Source of the DNA: Thermoanaerobaculia bacterium
GTDB taxonomy: Bacteria; Acidobacteriota; Thermoanaerobaculia; Multivoradales; JAHEKO01
Length of the DNA: 64,000 nt
Direction: 5' to 3'
NCBI GenBank assembly: GCA_963781065.1
Contig: CAWAET010000022.1
Location: forward strand, 29,055 to 93,054
Part shown: piece by piece, positions 5,503 through 48,193 of the stretch
Numbering within the stretch: position 1 is the first letter of the stretch
Layout: each line of letters starts with the position of its first letter
Position numbers and translations under genes: made by a program
The notes under the pieces: generated by a model
Told to the model about the DNA's origin: nothing
Databases searched by the model: none
Seen by the model: the letters and a program-made list of their open reading frames with translations, nothing else

Positions 5503-7394
5503 CTGCCCGTCTCCCCCCTCGTTGCCGGCGGCGCGCTCACCGCCATCGGTTCCGCGGCGCCCGCCGGTGGCGGCGAGTCGCCCGGCGCCACCGGCTCACG
5601 GCGGCGCACCTCGAGATCCACCCGCAGCAGGCCGCTGACCGGCACCGCCAGCCGCCGCTCGCTCTGTTGCGCCACCGCCAGCCGCAGCGGCTGGGCGCTG
5701 CCGGAAGGCGCCGCGGCCCAGATCGACCGTAGCGAGCCCGGCAGCTGCGGCAGGGCCTCGCCGGCCACCGCCAGCCCCGGGCCGCCAAAGACGCCCAGCA
5801 CCACCAGGTCGCGCCGCGAGTGCAGGCCCCGCAGCAGGTCCAGCGCCTGGCGGAAGCGGACCGGCGCCGCGCGCTCGATCGCCATCCGCGCCGCGTCGAC
5901 GCTGGTGCCGTCGCCGACCAGCAGCGTATAGCGGCCGTCCGGCAGGTCGGTGGGCAGCTGGATCGGGATCGACTCGCGAAACAGCTCGCCGCGATAGGCC
6001 ATGAGGTCGAGATTGAGCTCGAGCCGGTCTCCGGGGCGCAACTCGGTCCGGCTGACGTGCGCCTCGACCAGGCGGGCCAGCCGCGGCCGGGGATGCTGCT
6101 CGAGCTCGATCTCGATCGCCGCCAGCTCGACCTCGGCCATCGGGTTGCCGGTCAGAAAACCGGCGAAGGCCAGCAGATAGACCGCCGCTTCGATCCCCGC
6201 CGACTCGCCGTCGAAGCTCTGCTCCACCCGCAGCACGCCATGCTCCGCCAGGTCGAGCTTCGCCCGCATGTCGAGCCCCTGGGCACCGCCCGCCTGGGTG
6301 GCCGCATCCAGCGCCCCCAGCACCGAGATCGCGGCCAGCGTCGGGGTGAGCGTCGGCAGGTGGGCCAGACGCAGCTCGAAGTCCGCCTGACGCTGGCCGC
6401 TGACCGAGATCCGCAACGGCACCGTCGGCGCCAACGCCCCCAGGCGGCCGCGGATGCCGGCCGCCCGGTCGAGCTCGAAGGCCCCCACCACCGAGCCGAG
6501 GTTGGCGATCTTGAAGGAGCTGAACTGGCTCGGCAGCACGGTGATCACCTCGGAGGTGGCCATCGGCACGGCGAGCTCGCCGATGCCGAGGAAGGCGTGG
6601 CCGAAGGCGAGCAGGCTGTCGCCCACGCGGTCGGTGACGGTGCCGGTGGCCGCCATCCGCAGGTCGCCGTCGATCAGCACGCCGGCCACCGAGCCCCCGG
6701 GCACCAGGTCCGCCGGCGTCAGCCGCGAGCTGCCGGCCGGCGAAACGGTGCCGAGGCCGCCGGCCAGCCGCTGCCGGCTGGGCTCGCCAAAGCCGACGGT
6801 GCTCCACATCAGGCCGGAGCCGAAGCGGTCCGCCGCCTGCGAGCGCAACCGCCCAAGACCGTCGACGAGCAGATCCCGCGGCAGGTCGTTGGCCGCCAGC
6901 TGGTCGAGGGTCACCCCCGGCTCGCCGCGCGCCGGGCCCTCGGTGCCGGCCGGCACGGCGTAGAGCTTACGCATCTGCTCGATCGGCGTGATGCCGGCGA
7001 TCGGCTCGCGCGCGAACGGCCAGGCGAAGGCCACCGCCCCCGCCAACTTGCCGTCGAGATAGACCGGGCTGCCGCTCATGCCGGCGATGACGCCGCTGGT
7101 CTCGAGCCCCTGGCCGCTGAGCCGGGCGAGGATGAAGCTGGTGCCCGGGCGCAGGTTCTCCCAGATGCCCAGCACCTCGACCTCGAAGCGGTCCGGCTGG
7201 TCGCCCTGAAAGACCGACAGACCGTAGCCCCGCTGGCCGGCGCGGACCTCGGTGAGCGGCAGGATCTCCTGCTCGTGGGCGGCGGCCCCGAGACCCGGCA
7301 CCGGGTCCAGCATGGTGCCCGACACCAGCGCCAGCGCCACGATCGTCAGGCGGCACTGGCAGCGGGCGGAGCGCGGGGCGCGACGACGTCTCAT
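5499..7394 (-). CDS. putative SpoIVB-type (S55-like) serine peptidase domain protein
   Basis: The stretch SGVIAGMSGSPVYLDGKLAGAVAFAW resembles the S55 catalytic region. Start and stop overlap both neighbouring genes. Confidence 0.55.
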   Translation of the reverse strand: MRRRRAPRSARCQCRLTIVALALVSGTMLDPVPGLGAAAHEQEILPLTEVRAGQRGYGLSVFQGDQPDRFEVEVLGIWENLRPGTSFILARLSGQGLETSGVIAGMSGSPVYLDGKLAGAVAFAWPFAREPIAGITPIEQMRKLYAVPAGTEGPARGEPGVTLDQLAANDLPRDLLVDGLGRLRSQAADRFGSGLMWSTVGFGEPSRQRLAGGLGTVSPAGSSRLTPADLVPGGSVAGVLIDGDLRMAATGTVTDRVGDSLLAFGHAFLGIGELAVPMATSEVITVLPSQFSSFKIANLGSVVGAFELDRAAGIRGRLGALAPTVPLRISVSGQRQADFELRLAHLPTLTPTLAAISVLGALDAATQAGGAQGLDMRAKLDLAEHGVLRVEQSFDGESAGIEAAVYLLAFAGFLTGNPMAEVELAAIEIELEQHPRPRLARLVEAHVSRTELRPGDRLELNLDLMAYRGELFRESIPIQLPTDLPDGRYTLLVGDGTSVDAARMAIERAAPVRFRQALDLLRGLHSRRDLVVLGVFGGPGLAVAGEALPQLPGSLRSIWAAAPSGSAQPLRLAVAQQSERRLAVPVSGLLRVDLEVRRREPVAPGDSPPPAGAAEPMAVSAPPATRGETGR

Positions 7395-8074
7395 GGTGGT
7401 GGCGCCGGCTCGTCCCGCGCCGCCCGGATGGGCAGGTCCGGGACCCGCCGGCGCAGGTCGGCAATAGGATAACTCCCGCGGCGCAGAACCGTCAGCCGGC
7501 CCTCGCCCAGGGCCAGCAGGGTCGACGGCGGCCCGCCGGCGAGACGGCCGCCGTCGACGATCGCGGCGTCGCAGCCGGCCAGCAGGCCCGGCAGCTCCGC
7601 CGGATCGGTGACCGGCGGATCGCCGCTACGGTTGGCGCTGGTGGCGGTCAACGCCCGGCCGAGACCGCGGAGCAGGCGCAGCAGCGCCGGACAGTCCGGC
7701 AGCCGAACGGCCAGGGTTCGCCCGCCGGCGGCCGCCGGCATGCCCGGCGCGGCCGGCACGACCAGGCTCAGCGGCGCCGGCCAGAGGGCCGCAAGCCGAC
7801 GAAACAGCGGCTCGCCCACCGCAATGCCGAGGGCCGCCAGCTGACCCAGGTCGGCCGCGACCACCGGCAGCGGCTGGCCCGCCTGACGCCCTTTGAGGCG
7901 GTAGATCGCCGCCACGCCGCGCGGATCGCGTGGATCGGCCGCCAGCCCATAGCTCGACTCGGTGGGCACCGCCAGAACACCGCCGCGGTCGAGCAGCCGG
8001 CCGAGCGGCGCCAGGGGGTCGCCCGGGCGCCAGCGGCGCGGCGGCGCCGGATCGGAGCGACCGGCGGCCGTCAC
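7391..8074 (-). CDS. tsaC: L-threonylcarbamoyladenylate synthase (YrdC/TsaC domain)
   Basis: Motifs AVPTESSYGLAADP and IYRLKGRQAGQPLPV. GTG start overlaps the recN stop. Confidence 0.75.
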   Translation of the reverse strand: MTAAGRSDPAPPRRWRPGDPLAPLGRLLDRGGVLAVPTESSYGLAADPRDPRGVAAIYRLKGRQAGQPLPVVAADLGQLAALGIAVGEPLFRRLAALWPAPLSLVVPAAPGMPAAAGGRTLAVRLPDCPALLRLLRGLGRALTATSANRSGDPPVTDPAELPGLLAGCDAAIVDGGRLAGGPPSTLLALGEGRLTVLRRGSYPIADLRRRVPDLPIRAARDEPAPPP

Positions 8075-9792
8075 GCTTCGCCCGCCGCCACGGCGATCAG
8101 CTCGCGGGCGTGGGAGAGAGAGAGCTTCGTGACGTCGCGGCCGGCGAGCATGCGGGCAATCTCGCGCACCCGTGGATCCCCCGTCAGGGTCTCGACGCCG
8201 GTCTCGGTGCGCCCCCCGGCCTGCCGCTTGATCACCCGCAGGTGGCGCGCCCCGTGGCTGGCGACCTGCGGCAGATGGGTGACGACCAGGATCTGGCCGC
8301 CACGCGATAGCCGCTGTAGCTTGCTGCCCAGCGCCGCCGCCTCGGCGCCGCCGATGCCGGCGTCGACCTCGTCGAAGATCAGCGTCGCCGGCAGCGCCTC
8401 GCCGCTGCCTCGAACCGCCAGCTGCAGCGCCAGATAGATGCGCGAAAGCTCACCGCCGGAGGCGACCCGCGCCAGCGGTCCGGCCGGCTCGCCCGGGTTG
8501 GCGGCCAGCTGGAAGACGACCCGGTCGTAGCCCTCCGCCGCGAACTCCACCGGCTGGCCGGCCACCCGGAGCGGGCTGCCCTCCCGCCGCTGGCGCTCGA
8601 GCCGCACCGAGAACCGCGCCCTGGCCATCGCCAGCTCAGCGAGCTCGCGGTGCACCCGGCCGGCCAGCCCGCGGCCCCAGGCGGCGCGCTGCCTGGACAG
8701 CTCGGCTGCCGCGGCGGCGTACTCGTCGAGCGCCGCCGCGACCCCCTCCTCCAGCTCGGCGCGGCCCTCGGCGTCGGCGTCGAGCGTCGCCGCCTCGGCC
8801 GCCAGCCGGGCCCGCTCGGCCAGCACCCCGGCGCTGTCGCCGCCGTACTTGCGCAGCAGGGGCTCGATCGCTGACAGCCGCTGCTCGACCCGGTCCAGCC
8901 GGCGTGGATCCACCTCGACGCCGCGCAGCCGCTCACGCACCGCCACGGCCAGCTCCTGCAGCCGGATCCGCGCCTCCTCGAGCTCGTCGAGCCAGGCCGG
9001 CACCTCGGGCAGCCACTCCGACACCTCCTCCAGCTGCCGCTGGGCCCGCGCCACGCGCACCACGGCCGCGTCCTCGTCCTCCAGCAGCAGGCTCTCGGCC
9101 GCGGTCAGGGCGCCGCCGATCGCTTCGGCGTGCCGCAGCACGGCGCGCTCGCGGCGCAACTCGTCCTCCTCGCCGGCGGCCAGCTCGACCGCGTCGATCT
9201 CGCCGACCTGGAAGCGCAGCAGATCGAGCCGCTCACGGCGCTGGCGCTCGTCGCCGCTGACCCGCTCGAGCCGGTCGGCCAGATCGCGGTAGGCGCGGTA
9301 GGAAGCCGCCACGCCCCGGGTGAGCTTCGCCGCCTTCTCGCCGCCGCTGCGATCCAGCCAGGCGCGCTGAACCTCGGCCGAAAGCAGGCCGAGCTCCTCG
9401 CGCTGGGTGTGGATGCGCAGCAGGCCGGCGGCGAGGTCCCCCAAAAGCCTCAGGGTGACCGGCTGGTCGTTGACGAAGACCCGGTTGGGCGCCTCGCGGT
9501 GAACCTCGCGGCGCACCACCAGCTGGTCCTCGCCGGCATCGAGCCCGGCCGCGGCGAGCAGCCGCCGCTCGGGCTCGCCCAACGGCGCGAAGACGCCGGC
9601 CACCGACAGGACGTCGGCGCCGGCACGGATCGCTTCGCCGCTGGCGCGCGCCCCGGCCAGCAGCGCCAGCGAGTCGACGACGATCGACTTGCCGGCGCCG
9701 GTCTCGCCGGTGAGCACGTTGAGGCCGGGGCCGAACTCGACCTCGACGTCGGCCAGCACGGCGAGGTTTCGGACGTGAAGCGTGCGCAGCAT
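8071..9792 (-). CDS. recN: DNA repair protein RecN
   Basis: N-terminal Walker A (LTGETGAGKSIVVDSL), a long coiled-coil middle, and C-terminal ASGGELSRIYLAL plus LIFDEVDAGIGG. Confidence 0.9.
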   Translation of the reverse strand: MLRTLHVRNLAVLADVEVEFGPGLNVLTGETGAGKSIVVDSLALLAGARASGEAIRAGADVLSVAGVFAPLGEPERRLLAAAGLDAGEDQLVVRREVHREAPNRVFVNDQPVTLRLLGDLAAGLLRIHTQREELGLLSAEVQRAWLDRSGGEKAAKLTRGVAASYRAYRDLADRLERVSGDERQRRERLDLLRFQVGEIDAVELAAGEEDELRRERAVLRHAEAIGGALTAAESLLLEDEDAAVVRVARAQRQLEEVSEWLPEVPAWLDELEEARIRLQELAVAVRERLRGVEVDPRRLDRVEQRLSAIEPLLRKYGGDSAGVLAERARLAAEAATLDADAEGRAELEEGVAAALDEYAAAAAELSRQRAAWGRGLAGRVHRELAELAMARARFSVRLERQRREGSPLRVAGQPVEFAAEGYDRVVFQLAANPGEPAGPLARVASGGELSRIYLALQLAVRGSGEALPATLIFDEVDAGIGGAEAAALGSKLQRLSRGGQILVVTHLPQVASHGARHLRVIKRQAGGRTETGVETLTGDPRVREIARMLAGRDVTKLSLSHARELIAVAAGEA

Positions 9793-9825
9793 AGGACCTG
9801 CCCGGGTCGAGATCGCCCGACCGTG

Positions 9826-10197
9826 CTAGGCCGAGGGGATGAACTCCGGGTCCTCCTGTGCCCGTCGCTCGAAGCTCAGGAACTCGTAGTAGCCGCACCG
9901 CGGCTCGCCCGGGTACTCGCGACAGATCCCCGGCCGGGCTTCGTAGATCGTACAGCGACGCTCATCCGGATCCAGGAAGCGGCAGACCGACTTGTAGATG
10001 TGGTCCTTGCGGTGCCGCAGGACCCGCTCGCCCTTCTCCTCGCCCTTCTTGGTGTACTTGCGGCGCGCCGTCTCGAGATCGACGCCGAAGTGGGCCGCCA
10101 GCCGCTTCAGGTCCTTCTTCGAGACGATGACCCGCGGGTAGGAGCAGCAGTACGCCGGGCACAGGCTGCAGTCGTAGGAGGGCGCCATCGGTGGCAA
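9826..10197 (-). CDS. YkgJ-family cysteine-cluster protein (CxxCxxxCC)
   Basis: Motif CSLCPAYCC plus later Cys residues. The longest ORF starts at TTG 10197. An ATG at 10186-10188 is an alternative start. Confidence 0.7.
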
Positions 10198-38751: not shown

Positions 38752-39768
38752 TCAGGAGCGTTCGAGGTCGGCCAGAACGGCCTCCCGCACCGCCGGCAGG
38801 CCGGCCATCCCGGGCGGATAGACAAGCCGGCGCACCGGCACCTCCCGCACCAGCCGGGCAAAGGCCTCCAGCCGTGCCGCCTGCAGGCCCGCCGCCTCGA
38901 CGATGTAGGGCGAGAACGAGCGGCGCAGCAGCTCGACGACCGCCTGCCGCGCGGGGACCGGAGAGATCCGGACGCCCCCGCCGGCCGTCTCGCCATCCAG
39001 CCGCTCGGGCAGATACAGACGGCCGAGCGGCGCCGCGGCGGCGTGGAAGTCGCCGAAGCCGCCCTCCCCGACCGGAACCCAGTGCTTGCCGAGCTGGACG
39101 CGAGACGCCTCGCGGAGCCCCGGATCGGTGACGAAGTGCGCCAGCCCGTCCGGCCGCATGCGCATCTGGGGGTAGCCGGAGCGGCCGACGATCCCTGCGG
39201 CGGGCGCCTCGATCGCCAGCAGGTCGTCGCAGAGCAGCGGCGCGCCACCGGCCATCATCGCCGCCGCCAGGGCGGTCTTGCCGCCCCGGTGGCCGGCCAT
39301 GAAGGCCACCACCCGGCCGGCGACAACCACCGCCGAGGCGTGCAGGGCGCAGATCGCCAACCGCTCCAGCCAGTAGGCCAGGACCGGCCCCAGCAGGCGG
39401 ACCTCGACCAGCCGCGCGCCGGCCGCCCGACGCAGGTGACAATCGATGCGATCGCCGCCCAGGTAGAAGTCCAGCGCGTCGCCAAAGCGCAGCAGCTCTC
39501 CCTCGTCCAGCCGGTAAAGCCGCGACAGGCTGTCGCCGGCCGGATCGAGCAGCGGGCTCTCGTAGACCGGGTCGCCCAGCTGCGCCACGTACGGAGGCCG
39601 GTCCGCGACCGAGAAGGTCAGATCCACGTCCCCCCGGCCCGGCGACAGCCGGCTGGCAAAGGCGAACGAGCTGGCCAGGGTGAGGCCGAACAGGCGGTGG
39701 CTGCGCCGGCCCGAGATCGCGCCGGAGATCGCGCCCCTCGGGGTGCCCCCGTCCGGCGCCTCCGTCAT
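38752..39768 (-). CDS. HPr-kinase-C-terminal-domain-like serine kinase (HprK-related)
   Basis: LHASAVVVAGRVVAFMAGHRGGKTALAAAMMAGGAPLLCDD is a P-loop-like GxxGGKT in an HprK-type context. Confidence 0.65.
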   Translation of the reverse strand: MTEAPDGGTPRGAISGAISGRRSHRLFGLTLASSFAFASRLSPGRGDVDLTFSVADRPPYVAQLGDPVYESPLLDPAGDSLSRLYRLDEGELLRFGDALDFYLGGDRIDCHLRRAAGARLVEVRLLGPVLAYWLERLAICALHASAVVVAGRVVAFMAGHRGGKTALAAAMMAGGAPLLCDDLLAIEAPAAGIVGRSGYPQMRMRPDGLAHFVTDPGLREASRVQLGKHWVPVGEGGFGDFHAAAAPLGRLYLPERLDGETAGGGVRISPVPARQAVVELLRRSFSPYIVEAAGLQAARLEAFARLVREVPVRRLVYPPGMAGLPAVREAVLADLERS

Positions 39769-39815: not shown

Positions 39816-40829
39816 TCAGACGGCGGCGGCTTCCAACAGCCGGTGCCCGGCCAGCGTCTCGGCGAAGGAACCAAGGTCCCGCCGCAGGGTGTCGAGCGGC
39901 GCCTCGTACCGCTCGGCGAGGAAAGCCGCTCCGGCGTCGACGCTGCCCCAGGCCGCCAGGGCCCGCCACATGTCCGCGCCAACCCCCTCGAGGGCGAAGA
40001 CCCGATCCGTCGCCAGCGAGTAGAGCCAGATGCGGTCGTCGAGGGCGGCCGTGGCCACCTCATCGGCGACCCGCCAGGCCGGGGCCTCCACCGGCACCGG
40101 CGGCGGCCCGAGCTCGGCCCGCGCCTTGAGACAGCTGTGCGGCGGCAGCAGCCGCCAGCCCCGCTCGAGAGCCCCGCTGGCGGGGTTCCAGATCGGGCGG
40201 TCGGGCTCGCTCCAGGCAAAGCCGACCAGGTCCGGCAGACCCAACCAGTAGCGGCCGCCGCCGAGGTGGTCGCGACCGCTGGCCAGCCAGCGTGGATAGT
40301 CGTCGCCGTACAGCTCGCGCGCGTGGTCGGCCAGATCGGCCGCCGCCACACAGCGCTCCACCCGCGGCTCGGTGGCGACGATCGCCGCGCGCAGGTCCGG
40401 GTGCGAGTAGAGGTGCGCGAACACGACCCGCGGGCTGTCGCAGCCGGCCAGGGCGGCGCGGAAGCGCGAGCCGCTCAGCGCACAGTCGTCCACCAGCAAA
40501 AGCGGCCGATCGCCGGCCGGCTCGCCCGACAGCCGTGCCGCGCGCAGATCGAGCATGTACGCCAGCATGCCCAGCACGATCAGCCCGCCACGCGGGATGC
40601 CGCGGGCGGCGAACGCTCTCAGATCGCCGCGCGAGTGGCCCTCGAGCAGCTTGGCCGCCAGCGCCTCGCACAGGCGCTCGGCCCGGCGGTAGTCGACATA
40701 GCGGAGGGTGTGGCGCAGGCGCCGGACGACTCCCGGCAGGGTGCCCAGCCGCGCGGCATCGACCGATGTCAGCCCCGGCGGGGCCTGCAGGCCGGTCGGC
40801 AGCCGGTCCGCCTCATCAGTCCTCGTCAT
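39816..40829 (-). CDS. fusion protein: phosphoribosyltransferase-like domain + C-terminal PqqD-family (RRE-type) domain
   Basis: RGGLIVLGMLAYML and PLLLVDDCALSGSRF are a PRPP-type motif. The C-terminal ALEGVGADMWRALAAWGSVDAGAAFLAERYEAPLDTLRRDLGSFAETLAGHRLL is PqqD-like. The ATG at 40827-40829 overlaps the upstream stop (ATGA). Confidence 0.6.
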   Translation of the reverse strand: MTRTDEADRLPTGLQAPPGLTSVDAARLGTLPGVVRRLRHTLRYVDYRRAERLCEALAAKLLEGHSRGDLRAFAARGIPRGGLIVLGMLAYMLDLRAARLSGEPAGDRPLLLVDDCALSGSRFRAALAGCDSPRVVFAHLYSHPDLRAAIVATEPRVERCVAAADLADHARELYGDDYPRWLASGRDHLGGGRYWLGLPDLVGFAWSEPDRPIWNPASGALERGWRLLPPHSCLKARAELGPPPVPVEAPAWRVADEVATAALDDRIWLYSLATDRVFALEGVGADMWRALAAWGSVDAGAAFLAERYEAPLDTLRRDLGSFAETLAGHRLLEAAAV

Positions 40830-41977
40830 CGGCCGAGCTGGAAGATGACGGCGCCGACGTCGTCGCCCTGGAGCTCCCACTCGGTGGACTCCCGCTTGCG
40901 GTTGGGCCCGAACGAGTAGACGAAGATGACGCGGCTGCCGCGGCGGCGCGAGCACTCGTCACGGATCCAGTAGGGCGAGTTCCAGGGGTCGAGGAAGAAC
41001 TCCGCCCGCTCCGTCGGCATGCCCTGGCCGGTGAGCGCGGCGAAGGCGCCCTCGTACAGGTAGTCGGTGTCGTACTTCTCAACGAACGAGTAGACCCGCT
41101 TGTGCACTCCGCACCGGGTCACCGCCTTGCCGCGGTTGTCACGCGCCATGGTCAGGAAGTCGTCCTTGAGGGCGGCGGTCTCGGTAACCACCGCGGCCAG
41201 GATCTCCTCGCCGGTCCCGCGCTGCCCGCGCGAGTAGGCAGCCGCCGCCAGGCCCAGCGCGGCGACGATCGCCACCACCAGCGCCAGCCTGCCGAGACGC
41301 CGGGGCCCGGTCTCGGGCCGGCCGGCAAAGGTCTCCGCCGCGACCAGCGAGGCGAACAGGAATCCCAGCCCGACCATCAGCTCGATCACCTCGCCGGTGA
41401 ACTTGAGCGGATACTGCTGGTAGACGACCCAGGTGACCAGGAAGGCTGGCGCCAGTTGCCACGGCGACGCCACGACGGCGAGCCGATCCAACTGCCGGCG
41501 GACCGGCGCCGCCAGCGCCAGCAGCGGCAGCAACACGCCGTAGCCCAGGATGACGCCCTTCAGAGCCAGCTTGCGCAGCGAGGTGTCGACCACGTTGTGG
41601 ATGTTCAACTCCTGCTGGAAGTTCTCCTGCAGGAAGTAGACCGGCGGCCGGTAGCCCAGCACGCGCTGGCCCCACGAGATCTCCTCGCCGGCGACAAAGA
41701 CGCAGAACAGCGAGACGCCAGCCAGGAACCAGGGCAGCGCCCCGCTCGCCCGCCGCTGGCGGACCGCGGCGACGGCGAAGATCACCGCGGCGACGGCAAA
41801 GGCCCAGACCGTGGCCCATTCGAGGAACTCGTCCTCCTGGACCGCCTGGTAGTAGGCGTCCCGGCTCGACTCGTGAAGCGCCAGGGCCACGAGCAGCGGC
41901 AGCACCGCCAGCAGGTTGGCCACCAGCGGCCAGACGAAGCCCTGGGAGCTTCGGGCCGTGTTGAGCGTCGCGTTCAT
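40826..41977 (-). CDS. polytopic membrane protein with a GspG-C-terminal-like soluble domain
   Basis: Several hydrophobic helices occupy the first 250 aa or so. The C-terminal DPWNSPYWIRD...VYSFGPNRKRES resembles the pseudopilin DPWGxPY...GPDG motif. Confidence 0.65.
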   Translation of the reverse strand: MNATLNTARSSQGFVWPLVANLLAVLPLLVALALHESSRDAYYQAVQEDEFLEWATVWAFAVAAVIFAVAAVRQRRASGALPWFLAGVSLFCVFVAGEEISWGQRVLGYRPPVYFLQENFQQELNIHNVVDTSLRKLALKGVILGYGVLLPLLALAAPVRRQLDRLAVVASPWQLAPAFLVTWVVYQQYPLKFTGEVIELMVGLGFLFASLVAAETFAGRPETGPRRLGRLALVVAIVAALGLAAAAYSRGQRGTGEEILAAVVTETAALKDDFLTMARDNRGKAVTRCGVHKRVYSFVEKYDTDYLYEGAFAALTGQGMPTERAEFFLDPWNSPYWIRDECSRRRGSRVIFVYSFGPNRKRESTEWELQGDDVGAVIFQLGR

Positions 41978-42062: not shown

Positions 42063-44834
42063 CTAGTGACTATCGCTGTCCGAATCGCTGTCCGACGCGC
42101 TGTCGGAGTCGGAATCGCTGTCCGACGCGCTGTCGGAGTCGGAGTCACCCGAGTCCGAGTCCCCGTCGTCGGTCACGATCTCGCCGTTGATGTGGCACGC
42201 CAGGCCGCCGCCGTCGGAGTCGCCATCCGAGTCGGAATCCGAGTCACTATCGCTGTCCGAGTCCGAATCGCTGTCCGAGTCCGAGTCGTCGCTGTCGGAA
42301 TCGCCGTCATCGTCGCCCAGTGGGCAGAGCTCGCCGCCCTCGCGGCTGGTCCCCTCGACGACCTCGAAGTCGCCGCTCACGAGGCCCGGCCCGATTGGCT
42401 GCGAGCAACTCGTGTGGATCTTGGTGTTGAGCTGGCCGTTGACGTAGATGCTGATCTCGGTCCCCAGGGTGCCCTTCTTGTCCATCCCGGAGAAGGAGAA
42501 CGGCGCTCCGGGCTGGACGAAGTCGTTGAAGACCACCTTGCCGTCCTTCTTCTGCTTGATCAGGACCTGGGCGTTCATCGTCAGCCCGTTGTACTGCAGA
42601 GTAAGTTCCTGGACCTTGCCCTCGCACCCGCCGCAGTCGCCGCCGGGGTCGTTCCCGGAGTCGCTGTCGGAGTCATCGGAGCCCGAATCACTGTCGGAAT
42701 CGTCATCGAAGTCGATCAGGCAGATCGGGGCCACCCCGGTGATGACGTCATCGGAGTCGGAGTCGGAGTCGGAGTCGCTGTCATCACCCGAATCCGAGTC
42801 ACTGTCGTCGCCCGAATCGGAGTCGCTGTCGTCGCCCGAATCCGAGTCGCTGTCGTCGCCCGAGTCCGAGTCGCTGTCATCGCCCGAGTCCGAGTCGCTG
42901 TCATCGCCCGAGTCCGAGTCGCTGTCATCGCCCGAATCCGAGTCGCTGTCGTCGCCCGAGTCGGAGTCCGAGTCGACGTCACAGGGACAGATGTACGGGA
43001 AGTCGAAGGTCAGGACGTCACCCGAGCCCACGAGGTCCACCTCGAAGCCCGGCACTATCCGGTCGGGCCCCCCAAGGCCGTCGCCACCGTCGTTGGTGAC
43101 GATCAGCGCCGTTACCGGCAGGGTGATGGCCAGGCCCTCGAGAGGGCCGCCCGGCTCGGAGTTCGCCGGCGTGCACTCGACCAGGTACTCACCAGGCTCC
43201 AGCCCTTCGAACAGGTACATGCCGCTGTCGTCGGTCGTCGTGGTGTCGAGCAGCTCCGTCTGATCCGCGTTCCAAAGCTTGACCTCGACTCCGGGGATGC
43301 CCGGCTCGCCGGGATCCTCTTCGCCGTCGCCGTCGCGGTCCAGCCAGACGAAGTTGCCGACGTTGTACTCGGGATCCGGCACCACCTCGGCGTCGAAGCG
43401 GAAGAGGTTCAGGTTCTCCAAGTCGAGTCCGCTGACCCTGACCTCGTAGAGACCCGGTGGCAGCTCCGCCACCTGGGCGTCGGAGGCCACGATGCGGGTC
43501 GTGGGCACGCCGGGATCGGTGGGATCGAACAGAGTGATCTCACACAGCGCCGAGCCTTGCGAGATGCAGAAGACCTCCCACTCGCGGTTGCCGGAGGGAT
43601 TCACACCGGGGTCATCGCCCGGCGCGCCGTTGCTGGCCAGGACCTCGTCCAGCCCGCCGGTCTGGCCGTCGTAGCGCTCGCGCAGGATGACCTCGTAGTA
43701 GATCGACGGCTGACGCAGGAAGGGGTTGTTCGAGGTCGCGGGTCGGTCATCAGGCGGGTTGCCGGTGGAGGGCCCCAGGCCGCCGGCCACACCCTCCCAC
43801 TCCGCGCGCCGCACGATGCAGAAATCGCCGGGCGCCGGAATCGGATCGCCGAGCTCCTGGGCGCAGGCAGTCACGCAACCCGCTTCGCCAACCTCGAGCT
43901 CGGGCTCGGTGCAGCGGAACCCCCAGGGGGGCAAATCGCCCAGGTCCCCCACTATCGAGGGTGTGTTGGGGTCATCCGTGTCGTTGTTGGTGCCGAGCGC
44001 GTCGCCGCGATCCAGATCGCCGTCCCAGATCTCGAGCTGGTTGATCTGACCGGAGCCCGGGGGCGCCTGCACGTCGAGGAAGAAGCTGAACGTGCCGTCG
44101 TAGGTCGTGCCCTCAGCGAGGCAGGCCGGGAAGTTGCTCAGGTCGGACAAGCAGGCCGGGTAGATGATCGCCAGCTCCTTCAGGTCGGGCATCGCGGCAT
44201 TGAAGCCGAAGGGCTGCTGCGTCACCTGGATCGAAACGTCGGTCTCGAAGGTCTGGACCTTGAAGACGCTGCGGATCGTCTCCGACGAACTCGACGGCAC
44301 CGACTCCAGTGCCGAGCGCAGCACGTAGGCGTACTCGCTCTCGCACGGGTTCTGACCGGGGTTCCCCACGCACGCCGCGGGGTCATTCGTCACCGCGAAC
44401 GACGTCCACGCGTTGTCGTCCAGCTCCTCGGTGAATTCGTTGATGACCAGCAGTGGAGCCACGTCGTCCGGGTTGCCGTCTTGTGGAGCGACGTCCGGGT
44501 ACAGCCGAAAGATCAGCCGCGGATCGGGCTTGATCGCCGCCTGGGTGTTGATGTCCCAGTGGCCGACGGCCCGGCTGGTCTCGCCGTCGAAGATCCGCAG
44601 CGTGAAGCCGGCGATCAGCGGCGAGCTGATCTGGATATCGACTCCCTGATCGGCAAAGGTCGCCAGGCCCTGGTCGGCTCGTGTGTCGGTGATCGCGAGA
44701 AACCGCCCGTCGTTGACCGCGCAAGACGGCAGACAGTTGGTGTCCATCTGCGCCTGCGCCGCGGCCACAGTGGGCAGCGTGAGCACCAGGACCACCAGCG
44801 ACAGTCCAATGCAGGTGTGCTTGTTCAGTCTCAT
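42063..44834 (-). CDS. secreted Ser-Asp-repeat protein with an SdrD-B/Cna-B-like domain
   Basis: Signal peptide (CIGLSLVVLVLTLPTVAAAQA). GNFVWLDRDGDGEEDPGEPGIPGVEVKLWN...DSGMYLFEGLEPGEYLV is an SdrD B-like fold motif. There are two DS-rich repeat tracts. GGAGG lies 5 nt upstream of the ATG. Confidence 0.85.
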   Translation of the reverse strand: MRLNKHTCIGLSLVVLVLTLPTVAAAQAQMDTNCLPSCAVNDGRFLAITDTRADQGLATFADQGVDIQISSPLIAGFTLRIFDGETSRAVGHWDINTQAAIKPDPRLIFRLYPDVAPQDGNPDDVAPLLVINEFTEELDDNAWTSFAVTNDPAACVGNPGQNPCESEYAYVLRSALESVPSSSSETIRSVFKVQTFETDVSIQVTQQPFGFNAAMPDLKELAIIYPACLSDLSNFPACLAEGTTYDGTFSFFLDVQAPPGSGQINQLEIWDGDLDRGDALGTNNDTDDPNTPSIVGDLGDLPPWGFRCTEPELEVGEAGCVTACAQELGDPIPAPGDFCIVRRAEWEGVAGGLGPSTGNPPDDRPATSNNPFLRQPSIYYEVILRERYDGQTGGLDEVLASNGAPGDDPGVNPSGNREWEVFCISQGSALCEITLFDPTDPGVPTTRIVASDAQVAELPPGLYEVRVSGLDLENLNLFRFDAEVVPDPEYNVGNFVWLDRDGDGEEDPGEPGIPGVEVKLWNADQTELLDTTTTDDSGMYLFEGLEPGEYLVECTPANSEPGGPLEGLAITLPVTALIVTNDGGDGLGGPDRIVPGFEVDLVGSGDVLTFDFPYICPCDVDSDSDSGDDSDSDSGDDSDSDSGDDSDSDSGDDSDSDSGDDSDSDSGDDSDSDSGDDSDSDSGDDSDSDSDSDSDDVITGVAPICLIDFDDDSDSDSGSDDSDSDSGNDPGGDCGGCEGKVQELTLQYNGLTMNAQVLIKQKKDGKVVFNDFVQPGAPFSFSGMDKKGTLGTEISIYVNGQLNTKIHTSCSQPIGPGLVSGDFEVVEGTSREGGELCPLGDDDGDSDSDDSDSDSDSDSDSDSDSDSDSDGDSDGGGLACHINGEIVTDDGDSDSGDSDSDSASDSDSDSDSASDSDSDSDSH
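42081..42140. repeat. perfect 30-nt tandem duplication inside the C-terminal SD tract
   Basis: GAATCGCTGTCCGACGCGCTGTCGGAGTCG x2 by direct reading. Encodes DSDSASDSDS twice. Confidence 0.85.
42747..42975. repeat. about 8 tandem 24-nt units encoding DSDSDSGD
   Basis: GTCGCTGTC(G/A)TCGCCCGA(A/G)TCCGA periodicity by direct reading. The repeat is in frame in the SD-repeat gene. Confidence 0.85.
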
Positions 44835-45012: not shown

Positions 45013-45186
45013 TCAGGTGGCGAACGACGCGCCGAAGCCGTCCCCGGGCACCTGGGTGGAGAGCGTGCGGGTGAGCTCCTTCAAGCTCCCGTACTCCTGC
45101 AGCTCGGGCGGCTGGTAGGGATGTCCGCGCCGGCTCTCGGCCGATGGCCTCTTCGCCTTGGTTGGCTCAGGTCGCTTGTCGCTCAT
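45013..45186 (-). CDS. candidate lasso-peptide precursor (57 aa), in frame with the upstream cyclase-like ORF
   Basis: MSDKRPEPTKAKRPSAESRRGHPYQPPELQEYGSLKELTR|TLSTQVPGDGFGASFAT. It matches the leader motif YxxPxLx3Gx5Tx exactly, and Asp is at core position 9. GAGGAGG lies 11 nt upstream of the ATG. A terminator follows the stop. Confidence 0.45.
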   Translation of the reverse strand: MSDKRPEPTKAKRPSAESRRGHPYQPPELQEYGSLKELTRTLSTQVPGDGFGASFAT

Positions 45187-47065
45187 CTCTTGGTCAACCT
45201 CCTCGGGCAAACCCCGCAGCCAGGATTCCAGGCAGAGAAAAGATAACAGTCCATAGGCGGTACCCGTTCCATCCCAGAATCTATCGAAGGCGGCTGCAAC
45301 GGAGCCAGTAATGAACTGTACAGCTTCGGCGTGGGGCTTGTCCAGCATCCGCTCGACCGCCGTCCTCTCCTCGTGCCTCAGACGGCCGAGAAGCACGTCC
45401 TGGATGTGGCTCTTGCTCACTCGCCGCCGAATCCGCTCGGGCATCCGGCCAGCCATCGCCAGGCGCAGGATGCGCCGGTCGCCGCCGTGCCAGCTGCGCA
45501 ACCGGCGGGGCGCGTGGAGCAGGAGATCCACCACTCGGCGGTCGAGGAACGGCAGGCGCCACTCCACCCCGGCGTGCGCCGCGGTGACGTCGATCGCGCT
45601 GTGCCGAGCCAGATCGAACGGCCGCCCGATGGAGCGCGCCGCCCAGCGGCCGGCGGGCCCCAGGCCGGCGGCGAGAGCTCGCCGCGGCAGGGCCGGCAAC
45701 CGGCCGCGCCACGACCCTCGACCGGCGCGCCGCACCCATTCCCGATCGCCGGCGGGCCGCAACCGCCGCAAGGCCTCCTGCAGCCCGGCCGGAACCAGCG
45801 GCCAGAGAAAGGCTCGCGCCAGGAGCTCGGCGGTAGCCGTCCCGGTCGTCGAGCGGAAGCGGGGCAGCTCGGCCGCCAGCTCGCGCCAGCCGACCAGCCG
45901 CAGCGCCCGCGGGTCGTAGTAGAAGGCGTGGCCCAGCACCTGGTTGGCGCCTTCGCCGGCCAGCACAACCCGGCAGCCGTCACCCGCGGCGGCGTCGAAA
46001 AGCGCGGCGGTGTGGCTGCGCAGCAGGTAGACCTCGGGCTCGTCCAGCGGCTGCTCGTCGGCCGCCAGCCGACCGAGGGTAAGCGGCAGCTCCGCCGCCG
46101 GGATCCGTCGCGACGCCACGCCCTCGAGTCGATCGTCGAGCTCGTCGAAATAGTCGCTCTCGTCCGCCGTCGGCGTGCCTTCGAAGGTGAGACAGTAGAG
46201 GCGCAGCCGTTCCGCCGCGACGGCCTCGTGGGCGGTGCTGGCGACGGCGGCCGAGTCGACGCCGCCACCGGCCAGCAGACCCACCGGCTTCGGGCTGCGC
46301 AACCGGCTGCTGACCGCCAGATCGAACACCCGGCGGAAGCCCTCGGCCCACTCCTCGTCGCTGGTCGAAGGAGCCCGAGAAGGTCGACCCCAGCTCCCAC
46401 CACAGCCGCTGCCTGAGGCCGGTCTCGTCGGCGGTCAGGAAGTGCCCCGGCGCGACGCGCCGCACTCCTTCGTAGACAGTGCCCTCGATCCAGTGGCGGT
46501 AGGAATCGTGGAGAAAGGCCTCGACCAGCGGCCGGTTGAGCGGCGGCCGCTCGGCCAGCGCCGCCAGCACCGCGCCGATCGTGCTGCCGAAGGCCAGCGT
46601 CGCTCCGCGCCGCGCCCAGTAGAGCTGGCGCATGCCCATCGCGTCGCGGGCCAGCAGCAGCCGGCGCCGAGCGCCGTCCCACAGGGCGAAGGCGAAGTCG
46701 CCGAGGGCCTGGTCGCACACCCGTGGCCCGAACCGTTGATAGCCGGCCAGCAGGAGCCGGGCGTCGGAGGCGTCCTCGCCGAGCTCCGGCCGGCCTTGCC
46801 GCAGGCCGGCCAGCAGCTCGTCCCGGTTGTCGATCCGCGCGTCCGCGACGAGCCGTAGCCGGCCGCTCGCGTCGGCGATCGGCTGTTCCTCGGCGACCTC
46901 CTCGGGCGTCGTCCAGAACCGGCCGTGCACCATGCCGACGGCGCCGCCGACCCAACTCGCCATGCCGTCCGGCGAGCGGTAGGCGAGCTGGCCCGCCATC
47001 CGATCCAGCCGCGTCGGGTCGATCGGCGCACCGTCCAGGTTGAGCAAGCCGGCGAAACAGCTCAA
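45013..47065 (-). pseudogene. asparagine-synthetase-like (lasso-cyclase-type) gene, frame broken near 46360, no stop codon before the precursor-like tail
   Basis: The N-terminal GATase-like domain (GDFAFALWDGARRRLLLARDAMGMRQLYW) is in the frame of 45980..47170. The synthetase domain (LLAGGGVDSAAV ... LESWLRGL) is in the frame of 45013..46329. The junction reads GAC CAG C GAC GAG. Probable TTG start at 47065 ([12 protein letters not shown]). Confidence 0.65.
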
Positions 47066-47108
47066 GGCCGCGGGCCCCGCGCCGTTGGCGGTGCGAGAGC
47101 GGCCCGCG

Positions 47109-48193
47109 CTAGGCCACGCTGACGTCGTCGCACAGGAAGACGTCCTGGATCGCGTTGAGCAGCTCGACACCCTCGGCCAGCGGGCGCTGGAACGCCTTGC
47201 GGCCCGAGATCAGGCCGCAGCCGCCGGCGCGCTTGTTGATCACCGCGGTGCGCACCGCCTGGGCCAGGTCGCCCTGGCCGCTCGACGAGCCGCCCGAGTT
47301 GATCAGCCCCACCCGGCCCATGTAGCAGTTGGCCACCTGCCAGCGCACCAGATCCACCGGGTGGTCGGTGGTCAGCTTGTCGTAGACCAGCGGGTGCGTC
47401 TTGCCGAAGCCGATCGGCGCCGTAGCCGTTGTTGTTGGTCGCCTGCTTCTGCTTGACGATGTCGGCCTCGATGGTGACGCCCAGGTGGTTGGCCTGGCCC
47501 GTCAGGTCGGCCGCCGCGTGATAGTCGACGCCGTCCTTCTTGAAGGCCGGCTGGCGCAGATAGCACCAGAGGATCGTCGCCATCCCCAGCTCGTGCGCCT
47601 GGGCGAAGCACTCGGCGATCTCGACCAGCATCTCGTCCGAGTTCTCGGCGCCGAAGTAGACCGTCGCGCCGACGGCCGCGGCGCCCAGGTCCCAGGCCTG
47701 CTCGACGCTGGCGAACAGCACCTGCCGATAGCGCGTGGGGTAGGTCAGCGATCTCGTTGTGGTTGATCTTGACGATGAACGGGATGCGGTGGGCGTACTT
47801 GCGCGACATCGTGCCCAGGACGCCCATCGTCGAGGCGACGCCGTTGCAGCCGCCCTCGATGGCCAGCTCGATGATGTTCTCGGGGTCGAACAGCGCCGGG
47901 TTGGGGGCGAAGGATGCGGCGGCCGAGTGCTCGATGCCCTGGTCCACCGGCAGGATCGAGACATAGCCGGTGCCGCCCAGGCGGCCGTGGTTGAGGATCC
48001 GCCCCAGGTTGACCAGCACGCTGGGTTTGCGGTTCGAGATCCCCCAGACCCGGTCCAGGTGGTCGGGCCCGGGCAGGTGCAGCTGGTCACGAGTGATGCC
48101 GGTGCAGGTGTGCTCGAGCAGGCTCGTGGCCTCGTCGCCAAGCAGCTCGGCTATGCGGTCGATAGTGCCCGAAGGGCTTGCCGTTACGGTCAT
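47109..48193 (-). pseudogene. fbaB: class I fructose-bisphosphate aldolase (FbaB/DhnA type) split over three frames by two single-base insertions
   Basis: Three segments each match the FbaB pattern: [17 protein letters not shown]...FIVKINHNE, then [17 protein letters not shown]...[17 protein letters not shown], then [23 protein letters not shown]...AVINKRAGG. The breaks are at about 47749-47752 and about 47415. Confidence 0.85.

Follow-up and report, generated by a model that had tools for sequence, protein, structure and literature searches.

Can the precursor of a lasso-type peptide be encoded in frame at the 3' end of the gene for its own cyclase, and, if so, is the resulting fusion put to use? 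The question is raised by a 64,000-nucleotide (nt) stretch of a Thermoanaerobaculia bacterium assembly (contig CAWAET010000022.1; the whole stretch is called the window below), in which a minus-strand open reading frame (ORF) closed by TGA at 45015-45013 has as its last 57 codons MSDKRPEPTKAKRPSAESRRGHPYQPPELQEYGSLKELTRTLSTQVPGDGFGASFAT. Past the end of the Asn_synthase domain (...LLSFLCLESWLR) the frame stays open, with no stop, up to the Met of this peptide, whose ATG is at 45186-45184. The best reading is that the 57-codon ORF is a true lasso-type precursor gene (A), able to be translated on its own, directly 3' of a cyclase gene (C), and that the enzyme-precursor fusion is probably a tolerated by-product. 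The argument depends on the following features.

45187..47065, minus strand: Asn-synthetase-like (lasso-cyclase-type) gene, matched by Pfam GATase_7/GATase_6 and Asn_synthase; NF033535 is its best NCBIfam family
45187..45219, minus strand: 11-codon linker LRGLPEEVDQE, from the last conserved cyclase residue (Trp of ESW) to the precursor ATG, without a stop
45204-45198, minus strand: Shine-Dalgarno-like GAGGAGG within the cyclase reading frame, 11 nt 5' of the precursor ATG
45013..45186, minus strand: precursor peptide ORF, 57 codons plus TGA, recognised by its NF033521 match and by family conservation
45067-45186, minus strand: leader, residues 1-40
45016-45066, minus strand: predicted core of 17 amino acids (aa), TLSTQVPGDGFGASFAT
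44983-44947, minus strand: intrinsic-terminator-like hairpin with T-tract (9 pairs, 8 of them G-C; tail TTTTCCGTTTC)

The first issue is whether the peptide is a lasso-type precursor at all. The NCBIfam model NF033521 (lasso_leader_L3), which has a curated cut-off of 19, scores residues 24-40 at 25.4 bits, and the protein of a fused relative, locus L001, lies above the same cut-off (20.1 bits). The pattern Y..P.L...G.....T. has a single match in the six-frame translation of the window, at the precursor, compared with 0.03 matches in simulated windows of the same first-order composition. Cleavage after Arg40 places Tyr24, Pro27, Leu29 and Thr39 at -17, -14, -12 and -2, where B1 and B2 are reported to recognise the leader (PMC10368454), and all four residues are invariant across 23 aligned members of the precursor family. 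Both the leader register and the lasso-type assignment of the original prediction are upheld, the latter by a conserved peptide that passes the leader model and is encoded near a cyclase, a PqqD-type RiPP recognition element (RRE; RiPP, a ribosomally made peptide that is modified post-translationally) and an HprK-like kinase. Length is constrained as well: 21 of 22 free homologues have 57 aa and the remaining one 60, while the fused tails have 57 aa in three cases out of four and 58 in locus L004. The free peptides keep this near-constant length although their first 22 residues are poorly conserved. The precursor's own ribosome-binding sequence and the terminator were both found where they had been predicted, the hairpin some 30 nt past the precursor stop codon, and L001 has a similar element.

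The second issue is whether the junction is real. Homologues were collected by protein search with the ORF, and the junction DNA of each fused locus was read directly. Fused homologues have 682 aa (P0002, 88% identical, with a core identical to that of the window), 677 aa (P0003, 70% identical) and 688 aa (P0009, 57% identical). There are four independent fused loci: the window itself (NCBI/ENA); L001 and L002, from two JGI metagenome samples with an identical junction; L003, from an NCBI metagenome-assembled genome of a Thermoanaerobaculia bacterium (Acidobacteriota); and L004, from a Logan assembly. An apparent fusion could arise from a base lost or gained, or from an error in calling a stop, and some local features invite that suspicion: three single-base insertions relative to L001 just upstream (47749, 47414 and 46365) break an aldolase gene and the cyclase gene, and stops stand directly at the junction in both alternative frames; a TGA in the +1 frame overlaps the precursor ATG (agATGAgc). 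Such an artefact is nevertheless extremely improbable and was rejected, because the same stop-less, in-frame junction recurs in L001, L002, L003 and L004, which come from different projects and assemblers. Because the window and L001 are collinear, with no indel, from 45755 to 44954, the junction is also unaffected by the nearby insertions. The stop-less frame that had been claimed from the window therefore holds in independent assemblies.

How, then, does the fused state relate to the usual one? Thirteen loci were examined for junction state, of which 4 are fused and 9 split. Other close cyclase homologues end 6-22 residues past ESWLR, and in the close split loci a separate precursor ORF begins no more than 10 nt from the cyclase stop codon or overlaps it. 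The split junctions are as follows.

L005: TAG immediately 5' of the ATG (codon -1), same frame
L013, L014 and L015: TAG, then one sense codon, then ATG, same frame
L006: TAG at codons -4 and -2, same frame
L008: GTGA overlap, different frames
L012: ATGA overlap, the spacer being 1 nt short of the window's, different frames
L007: 20-nt overlap, different frames
L016 (cyclase P0012, 45% identical): precursor-like ORF of its own, set apart by about 70 nt; a more distant split locus

Exactly 11 codons separate the ESW Trp codon from the ATG in all eight same-frame loci, and at codon -2 of the linker L013-L015 have TAG where L003 has CAG. Because this spacing is fixed, the fused and split states can be seen to differ by point mutations: one substitution (TAG versus a sense codon) or 1 nt of spacer separates them. 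Recoding or read-through of TAG was also considered as a family-wide route to fusion and rejected, TAG being an ordinary stop that ends 14 of 42 ORFs in the window and is common in the other loci too.

Twenty-two free precursor peptides were recovered by profile search, and nearly all of 152 matches in an exhaustive search of 1.84 billion representative proteins are free peptides of 44-82 aa, the longer matches being multi-unit precursors or an unrelated repeat protein. Peptide-profile scans of genome and metagenome DNA yielded one extra locus only, L012. The homologous C-terminal extensions anticipated by the original prediction exist, in that the leader motif occurs in the cyclase tail of four members of the window's family; among the 120 cyclase homologues listed there are no others. 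Tailless homologous cyclases had been named in advance as evidence against the proposal, and they are largely what was seen, most ending shortly after ESWLR as described above. An obligatory, borosin-like enzyme-fused precursor, which had been put forward as the closest analogy, thus finds no support, 9 of the 13 loci being split and 22 peptides free. As a separate observation, P0162 (199 aa), P0163 (382 aa) and P0156 (133 aa) are single ORFs with 2-5 tandem leader-like units, each a YxxPxL...T motif followed by a short core; each could be a multi-unit lasso-like precursor or else a row of precursor genes joined in frame, and the latter would be another form of stop-less junction.

The history of the junction was followed on a neighbour-joining tree of cyclase domains, from which L012, represented only by the last 153 cyclase residues, was left out. 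One clade pairs the window and L001 with L003 and L005 (bootstrap 77), and a second joins L004 to L007 and L008 (bootstrap 89); the cyclase C-terminus of L012 is closest to that of the window (80% identity). Because fused loci fall in two clades, the tree implies at least two origins of the fused state. The mostly fused clade also has stops at new positions, in L005 at codon -1 and in L012 through a 1-nt change, and the pattern looks like flux of a stop codon over an unconstrained boundary. Differences per codon pair, given here for four segments, bear on the same point.

Linker: synonymous 0.20, non-synonymous 0.66
N-terminal leader: synonymous 0.12, non-synonymous 0.67
Leader motif: synonymous 0.26, non-synonymous 0.17
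Core: synonymous 0.39, non-synonymous 0.18

By these counts purifying selection acts on the leader motif and core, and the linker is unconstrained.

Independent translation of the precursor is suggested by what the fused loci have retained. They keep an ATG (GTG in L004) at the homologous position. When the upstream 22 nt were paired with the anti-Shine-Dalgarno sequence, duplex energies were -12.8 (window), -8.6, -6.9 and -12.9 kcal/mol in fused loci and -4.3 to -12.1 kcal/mol in split loci, against a background of -3.9 +/- 2.5 for the window; comparable Shine-Dalgarno-like sites precede the precursor start in 12 of 12 loci, fused or split. The free precursor is probably still made from its own start. 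The earlier proposal that a free peptide and an enzyme-tethered form are both possible fits the combination of a stop-less frame with dedicated start signals.

Taken with the junction data, these observations are probably best explained by recurrent loss of a stop codon at a translationally coupled cyclase-precursor boundary, with the fusion as a tolerated by-product. C and A would be translationally coupled, and the C stop codon would drift within a few codons of the A start; where the stop was lost, as it would have been in the window and three other loci, the C frame would continue through A. The free 57-aa precursor, initiated from its own Shine-Dalgarno sequence and ATG, would be the main substrate. 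A second product, a cyclase of about 683 aa with the precursor attached through a flexible, roughly 50-residue tail, follows directly from the sequence, because ribosomes on the cyclase must continue to the precursor stop. In the ensuing pathway Tyr-17 together with Pro-14 and Leu-12 of the leader would be bound by the RRE domain of a fusion protein encoded downstream, cleavage would follow Thr(-2)-Arg(-1), the new N-terminus would be linked by the ATP-dependent cyclase to the invariant Asp9 of the core, and an HprK-like kinase would probably phosphorylate a conserved Ser. The fused form might be processed too, because lasso leaders tolerate large N-terminal fusions: precursors fused N-terminally to maltose-binding protein (MBP) still yield lasso peptides when processed cell-free (bioRxiv 10.1101/2020.11.25.399105). 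With that precedent, and because about 50 flexible residues precede the cleavage site, tethered processing of the cyclase-precursor fusion is plausible.

Several points weigh against this reading. The inferred internal initiation draws only on the Shine-Dalgarno-like sequence, the start codon and the conserved length, and in L004 the internal start is GTG, with a purine-rich upstream sequence that is a less clear Shine-Dalgarno site. The fusion recurs and persists over about 30% cyclase divergence, which could mean that it is useful. In the window the cyclase itself is broken by a 1-nt insertion near 46365 (aligned with L001, 89% identical in DNA). The main weakness of the lasso assignment for the family is that the window and the related loci yielded no B2 and no discrete B1. 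Finally, core position 1 is not occupied by a small residue (Gly, Ala, Ser or Cys) as a rule in either the window, where it is Thr, or the family, where it is Thr, Ser, Asn or Gln. Such small residues are usual at that position of lasso cores and are not an absolute requirement; fusilassin starts with Trp. Thr at this position, which the original prediction called unusual, lies outside the usual set and is typical of its own family.

The persistence of the fusion also counts in favour of a rival proposal, that the fused protein is the intended substrate or a scaffold, as in borosins or BURP-domain cyclases. Fusion arose at least twice and has been kept between cyclases 57-88% identical; the fixed 11 codons from Trp to ATG hold the frame even across a TAG; the roughly 50-residue tether has a predicted flexibility; lasso leaders accept large N-terminal partners; and borosins include fused alongside split architectures (bioRxiv 10.1101/2021.12.24.474128, PMC7878506). 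Against this stand the predominance of split loci and free peptides, the reappearance of stops at new positions in the mostly fused clade (TAG at codon -1 in L005, ATGA in L012), the internal start codon and Shine-Dalgarno-like sequence retained in fused loci, the unconstrained linker, the restriction of the tail to four family members among the 120 cyclase homologues listed, and a structural model in which the tail does not dock. In that AlphaFold2 model of the intact fused protein P0002, built from a 99-sequence alignment (mean pLDDT, the predicted local distance difference test, 90.8; predicted template-modelling score, pTM, 0.90), the fold matches TsnB9, asparagine synthetase B (AsnB) and beta-lactam synthetase; confidence is high over the cyclase domain and drops to pLDDT <50 in the tail, from residue 643 on, so that the precursor is predicted to be a flexible, undocked appendage, a low-confidence outcome that speaks neither for nor against modification in cis. 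It is therefore unlikely that the fused form is the intended substrate. The variants that can be imagined, processing in cis or in trans by a single-turnover enzyme or, after cleavage, recruitment of an RRE-containing partner by the tethered leader, are each doubtful, and there is only a slim chance that in some Thermoanaerobaculia the cyclase is naturally tethered to its own substrate and uses the fusion in a cassette without canonical B1 and B2. If it were so, the consequences would include a new leader-removal route and an unusual macrolactam beginning with Thr, Ser, Asn or Gln.

What product is predicted? The core pattern is x-L-S-T-Q-T-P-G-D-G-F-G-A-S-F-A-T. Asp9 is invariant in the 23 aligned members and present in the fused tails, and its spacing is the same in the more distant homologues inspected; a 9-residue macrolactam closed on Asp9 is the natural prediction, and the choice of this residue as acceptor in the original prediction agrees with its invariance. 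The C-terminal Thr, which had been offered as a site for the HprK-like kinase, is doubtful in that role, because that last position is variable (T/N/D/I/S/G/V), in contrast to an invariant Ser14 and a Ser3 that is at least 90% conserved; this suggests that Ser3 or Ser14 are the better candidates. There is precedent for Ser3, which BsfK modifies with the help of B1 (PMC10368454).

The precursor lies in a cassette that runs aldolase, cyclase, precursor, terminator, secreted protein, membrane protein, RRE fusion and kinase-like protein. This order is syntenic in L001, L003 and L007, the related loci of sufficient length. Downstream of the terminator the genes are as follows.

42063..44834, minus strand: secreted SdrD_B/DUF7467 protein with a signal peptide, the gene after the precursor terminator
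40826..41977, minus strand: conserved multi-pass membrane protein, 383 aa
39816..40802, minus strand: 328-aa protein, an N-terminal domain followed at the C-terminus by a lasso-type RRE (PqqD)
38752..39768, minus strand: HprK-related kinase-like protein, with P-loop GGK(T/S) followed by LLxDD

The expected PqqD-type RRE is thus present as a C-terminal domain rather than as a discrete B1 (Pfam PqqD 1.8e-9; TbiB1 in the PDB, 5v1u, 8e-7 and 3e-7). Its orthologues (L001 16372-17361, L017 12197-13105) range from Thermoanaerobaculia to Chloroflexi and always sit beside the HprK-like gene, for which the matches are TIGR04352 at 1.4e-4, on the L001 orthologue, and the HPr(Ser) kinase 3tqf at 0.013 by profile. 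Neither a B2 (PF13471, Transglut_core3) nor a discrete B1 gave a Pfam or NCBIfam match in the cassette or in the window between 29.8 and 53.6 kb; tblastn with the B1 and B2 of Chloroflexi locus L017 returned nothing significant in the whole window or in related loci; and loci L001, L003, L005-L008 and L013-L015 have no B2 or discrete B1 near their cassettes; these searches reached the window and the related loci, not the rest of the genome. The same tools detect B2 in L017. Because of this absence, the processing route, and with it lasso formation, is only presumed for this family, and we infer that the Thermoanaerobaculia lineage lost B1 and B2 or moved them elsewhere.

L017 (GCA_014360755.1; cyclase P0045, 42-43% identical) provides the natural point of comparison. 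It shares the module of C, A, RRE fusion and HprK-like kinase as well as a homologue of the secreted protein, in the order secreted protein, B1, B2, C, A, RRE fusion, HprK-like; because it carries both, the tight C-then-A order and the pairing of RRE fusion with kinase predate the family. Unlike the window, it has a canonical B1 (PqqD, 93 aa) and B2 (Transglut_core3, 1e-20) directly upstream of C, at 9293-10004. Its precursor has 69 aa and a Gly1...Asp8 core; A shares 8 nt with the end of C in a different frame, so that the two are not fused. Because the homologue of the secreted SdrD_B/DUF7467 protein (6609-8126) sits upstream of B1 there, and the gene is syntenic in the five related loci that reach past the terminator (L001, L003, L005, L007 and L015), the arrangement suggests that this protein is functionally linked to the peptide.

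One could read the contrast with L017 as decay: B1 and B2 gone from near every Thermoanaerobaculia locus, a frameshifted cyclase in the window, and stop loss and frameshifts alike as erosion of a defunct pathway. This is very unlikely. The cyclase is intact in L001, L003, L004 and every split locus, leader motif and core show strong purifying selection, and the cassette of C, A, secreted protein, membrane protein, RRE fusion and kinase is syntenic in L001, L003 and L007; the adjoining housekeeping aldolase, moreover, has two similar insertions, which makes all of them look like assembly errors. Alternatively, the pathway could be active without making a lasso peptide, the cyclase forming some other ATP-dependent amide on Asp9, an unrelated protease removing the leader, and the final RiPP having a different structure. 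In favour of that account are the lack of a nearby B2, the Thr, Ser, Asn or Gln at core position 1, the score of the intact L001 cyclase (303 bits, below the NF033535 cut-off of 525), and unusual accessory genes, namely a domain with a motif like a phosphoribosyl pyrophosphate (PRPP) loop fused to an RRE, a secreted DUF7467 protein and a membrane protein. It remains an unlikely outcome: Thr(-2) stands a constant 10 positions before the invariant Asp (core residue 9) in the family and in more distant relatives, the leader scores above the lasso model cut-off, NF033535 is still the best-scoring NCBIfam family for the cyclase, and the closest outgroup, L017, has the canonical B1-B2-C-A set.

Kinase-associated lasso clusters with split B1 and B2 (the paeninodin type, and bsf of Bradymonas sediminis; PMC10368454) are close in content. 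They share the Tyr(-17)xxPro(-14)xLeu(-12) leader, the Asn-synthetase-like cyclase, the PqqD-type RRE, the HprK-like kinase and a core Ser that may be phosphorylated. The present family differs in that C and then A abut or are fused, no discrete B1 or B2 is nearby and no ABC exporter was found, the RRE is C-terminal in a 328-aa protein, core position 1 is Thr, Ser, Asn or Gln, and secreted and membrane proteins are conserved. Borosins, OphMA-type fused and type IV split, likewise place a core at the C-terminus of the modifying enzyme and occur in both architectures. In fused borosins, however, the fusion is conserved, obligatory and autocatalytic and the chemistry is N-methylation, whereas here the fusion is a minority state, one mutation from the split one and with its own translation signals, and the predicted modification is a macrolactam. 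The core of the window does share a polypeptide with the enzyme as a borosin core does, but fusion is not family-wide and the precursor has a start of its own. Plant BURP-domain peptide cyclases also carry enzyme and core on one chain. These eukaryotic enzymes depend on copper, are fused obligatorily, and have no relation to the present system in sequence or chemistry. The engineered MBP-FusA and MBP-CelA show that a large N-terminal protein need not block leader recognition, cleavage or cyclisation; they are artificial, and their partner, unlike the one here, is not a cyclase.

Is the architecture new? Full-text literature searches found no report of a natural lasso cyclase-precursor fusion, in keeping with the novelty originally claimed, and a review of lasso fusions names none beyond nucleotidyltransferase-B2 fusions and engineered ones at the C-terminal tail (PMC8498205). 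The natural in-frame fusion is a real and apparently undescribed architectural variant. If the fusion is a neutral by-product, as is judged most likely, it is a modest curiosity and not a new mechanism. Fused and split states one mutation apart in close relatives nonetheless amount to a natural experiment, which could show whether a lasso leader works while tethered to its cyclase, how translational coupling sets the stoichiometry of enzyme to substrate, and how enzyme-fused RiPP architectures such as borosins might originate. Because gene callers absorb the precursor into an 'asparagine synthase' ORF, such clusters will be missed by genome mining for small ORFs. Further interest of the family lies in the lack of nearby B1 and B2, the RRE fused to a PRPP-loop-like domain, the HprK-like kinase, and the Thr, Ser, Asn or Gln at core position 1.

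Some details of individual genes should be added. ORF 45013..46329, first taken for the cyclase gene, is only the part downstream of the insertion near 46365; the true start is a TTG at 47065, and as sequenced the amidotransferase-like N-terminal domain falls in another frame (ORF 45980-47170). The N-terminal Cys of the cyclase is not conserved in homologues (MSC/MSG/MSA). The two further single-base insertions, at 47749 and 47414, lie in the adjoining class I fructose-bisphosphate aldolase gene (47109-48193, minus strand), which is split into three frames as the cyclase gene is into two. All three insertions lie within 1.4 kb, none in a homopolymer run, and they are probably assembly errors, because so close a cluster also hits a housekeeping gene.

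The RRE fusion protein may be a new tailoring enzyme. Its N-terminal domain of about 240 aa has a PRPP-loop-like motif (LLLVDDCALSG; RPLLLVDDCALSGARF), and the assignment draws on this motif and on faint Pfam phosphoribosyltransferase matches only; a PDB profile search with the domain gave no match, and a single-sequence AlphaFold2 model of the fusion protein (pLDDT 41) was unusable. The 383-aa protein has no Pfam, NCBIfam or PDB match (a PDB profile search included). It combines an N-terminal multi-pass membrane region with a C-terminal soluble domain (DPWNSPYWIRD...FVYSFGPN...GDDIG) which is reminiscent of the signature of type II secretion pseudopilin G. In L001 and L007 a gene for a second DUF7467 protein follows the kinase gene.

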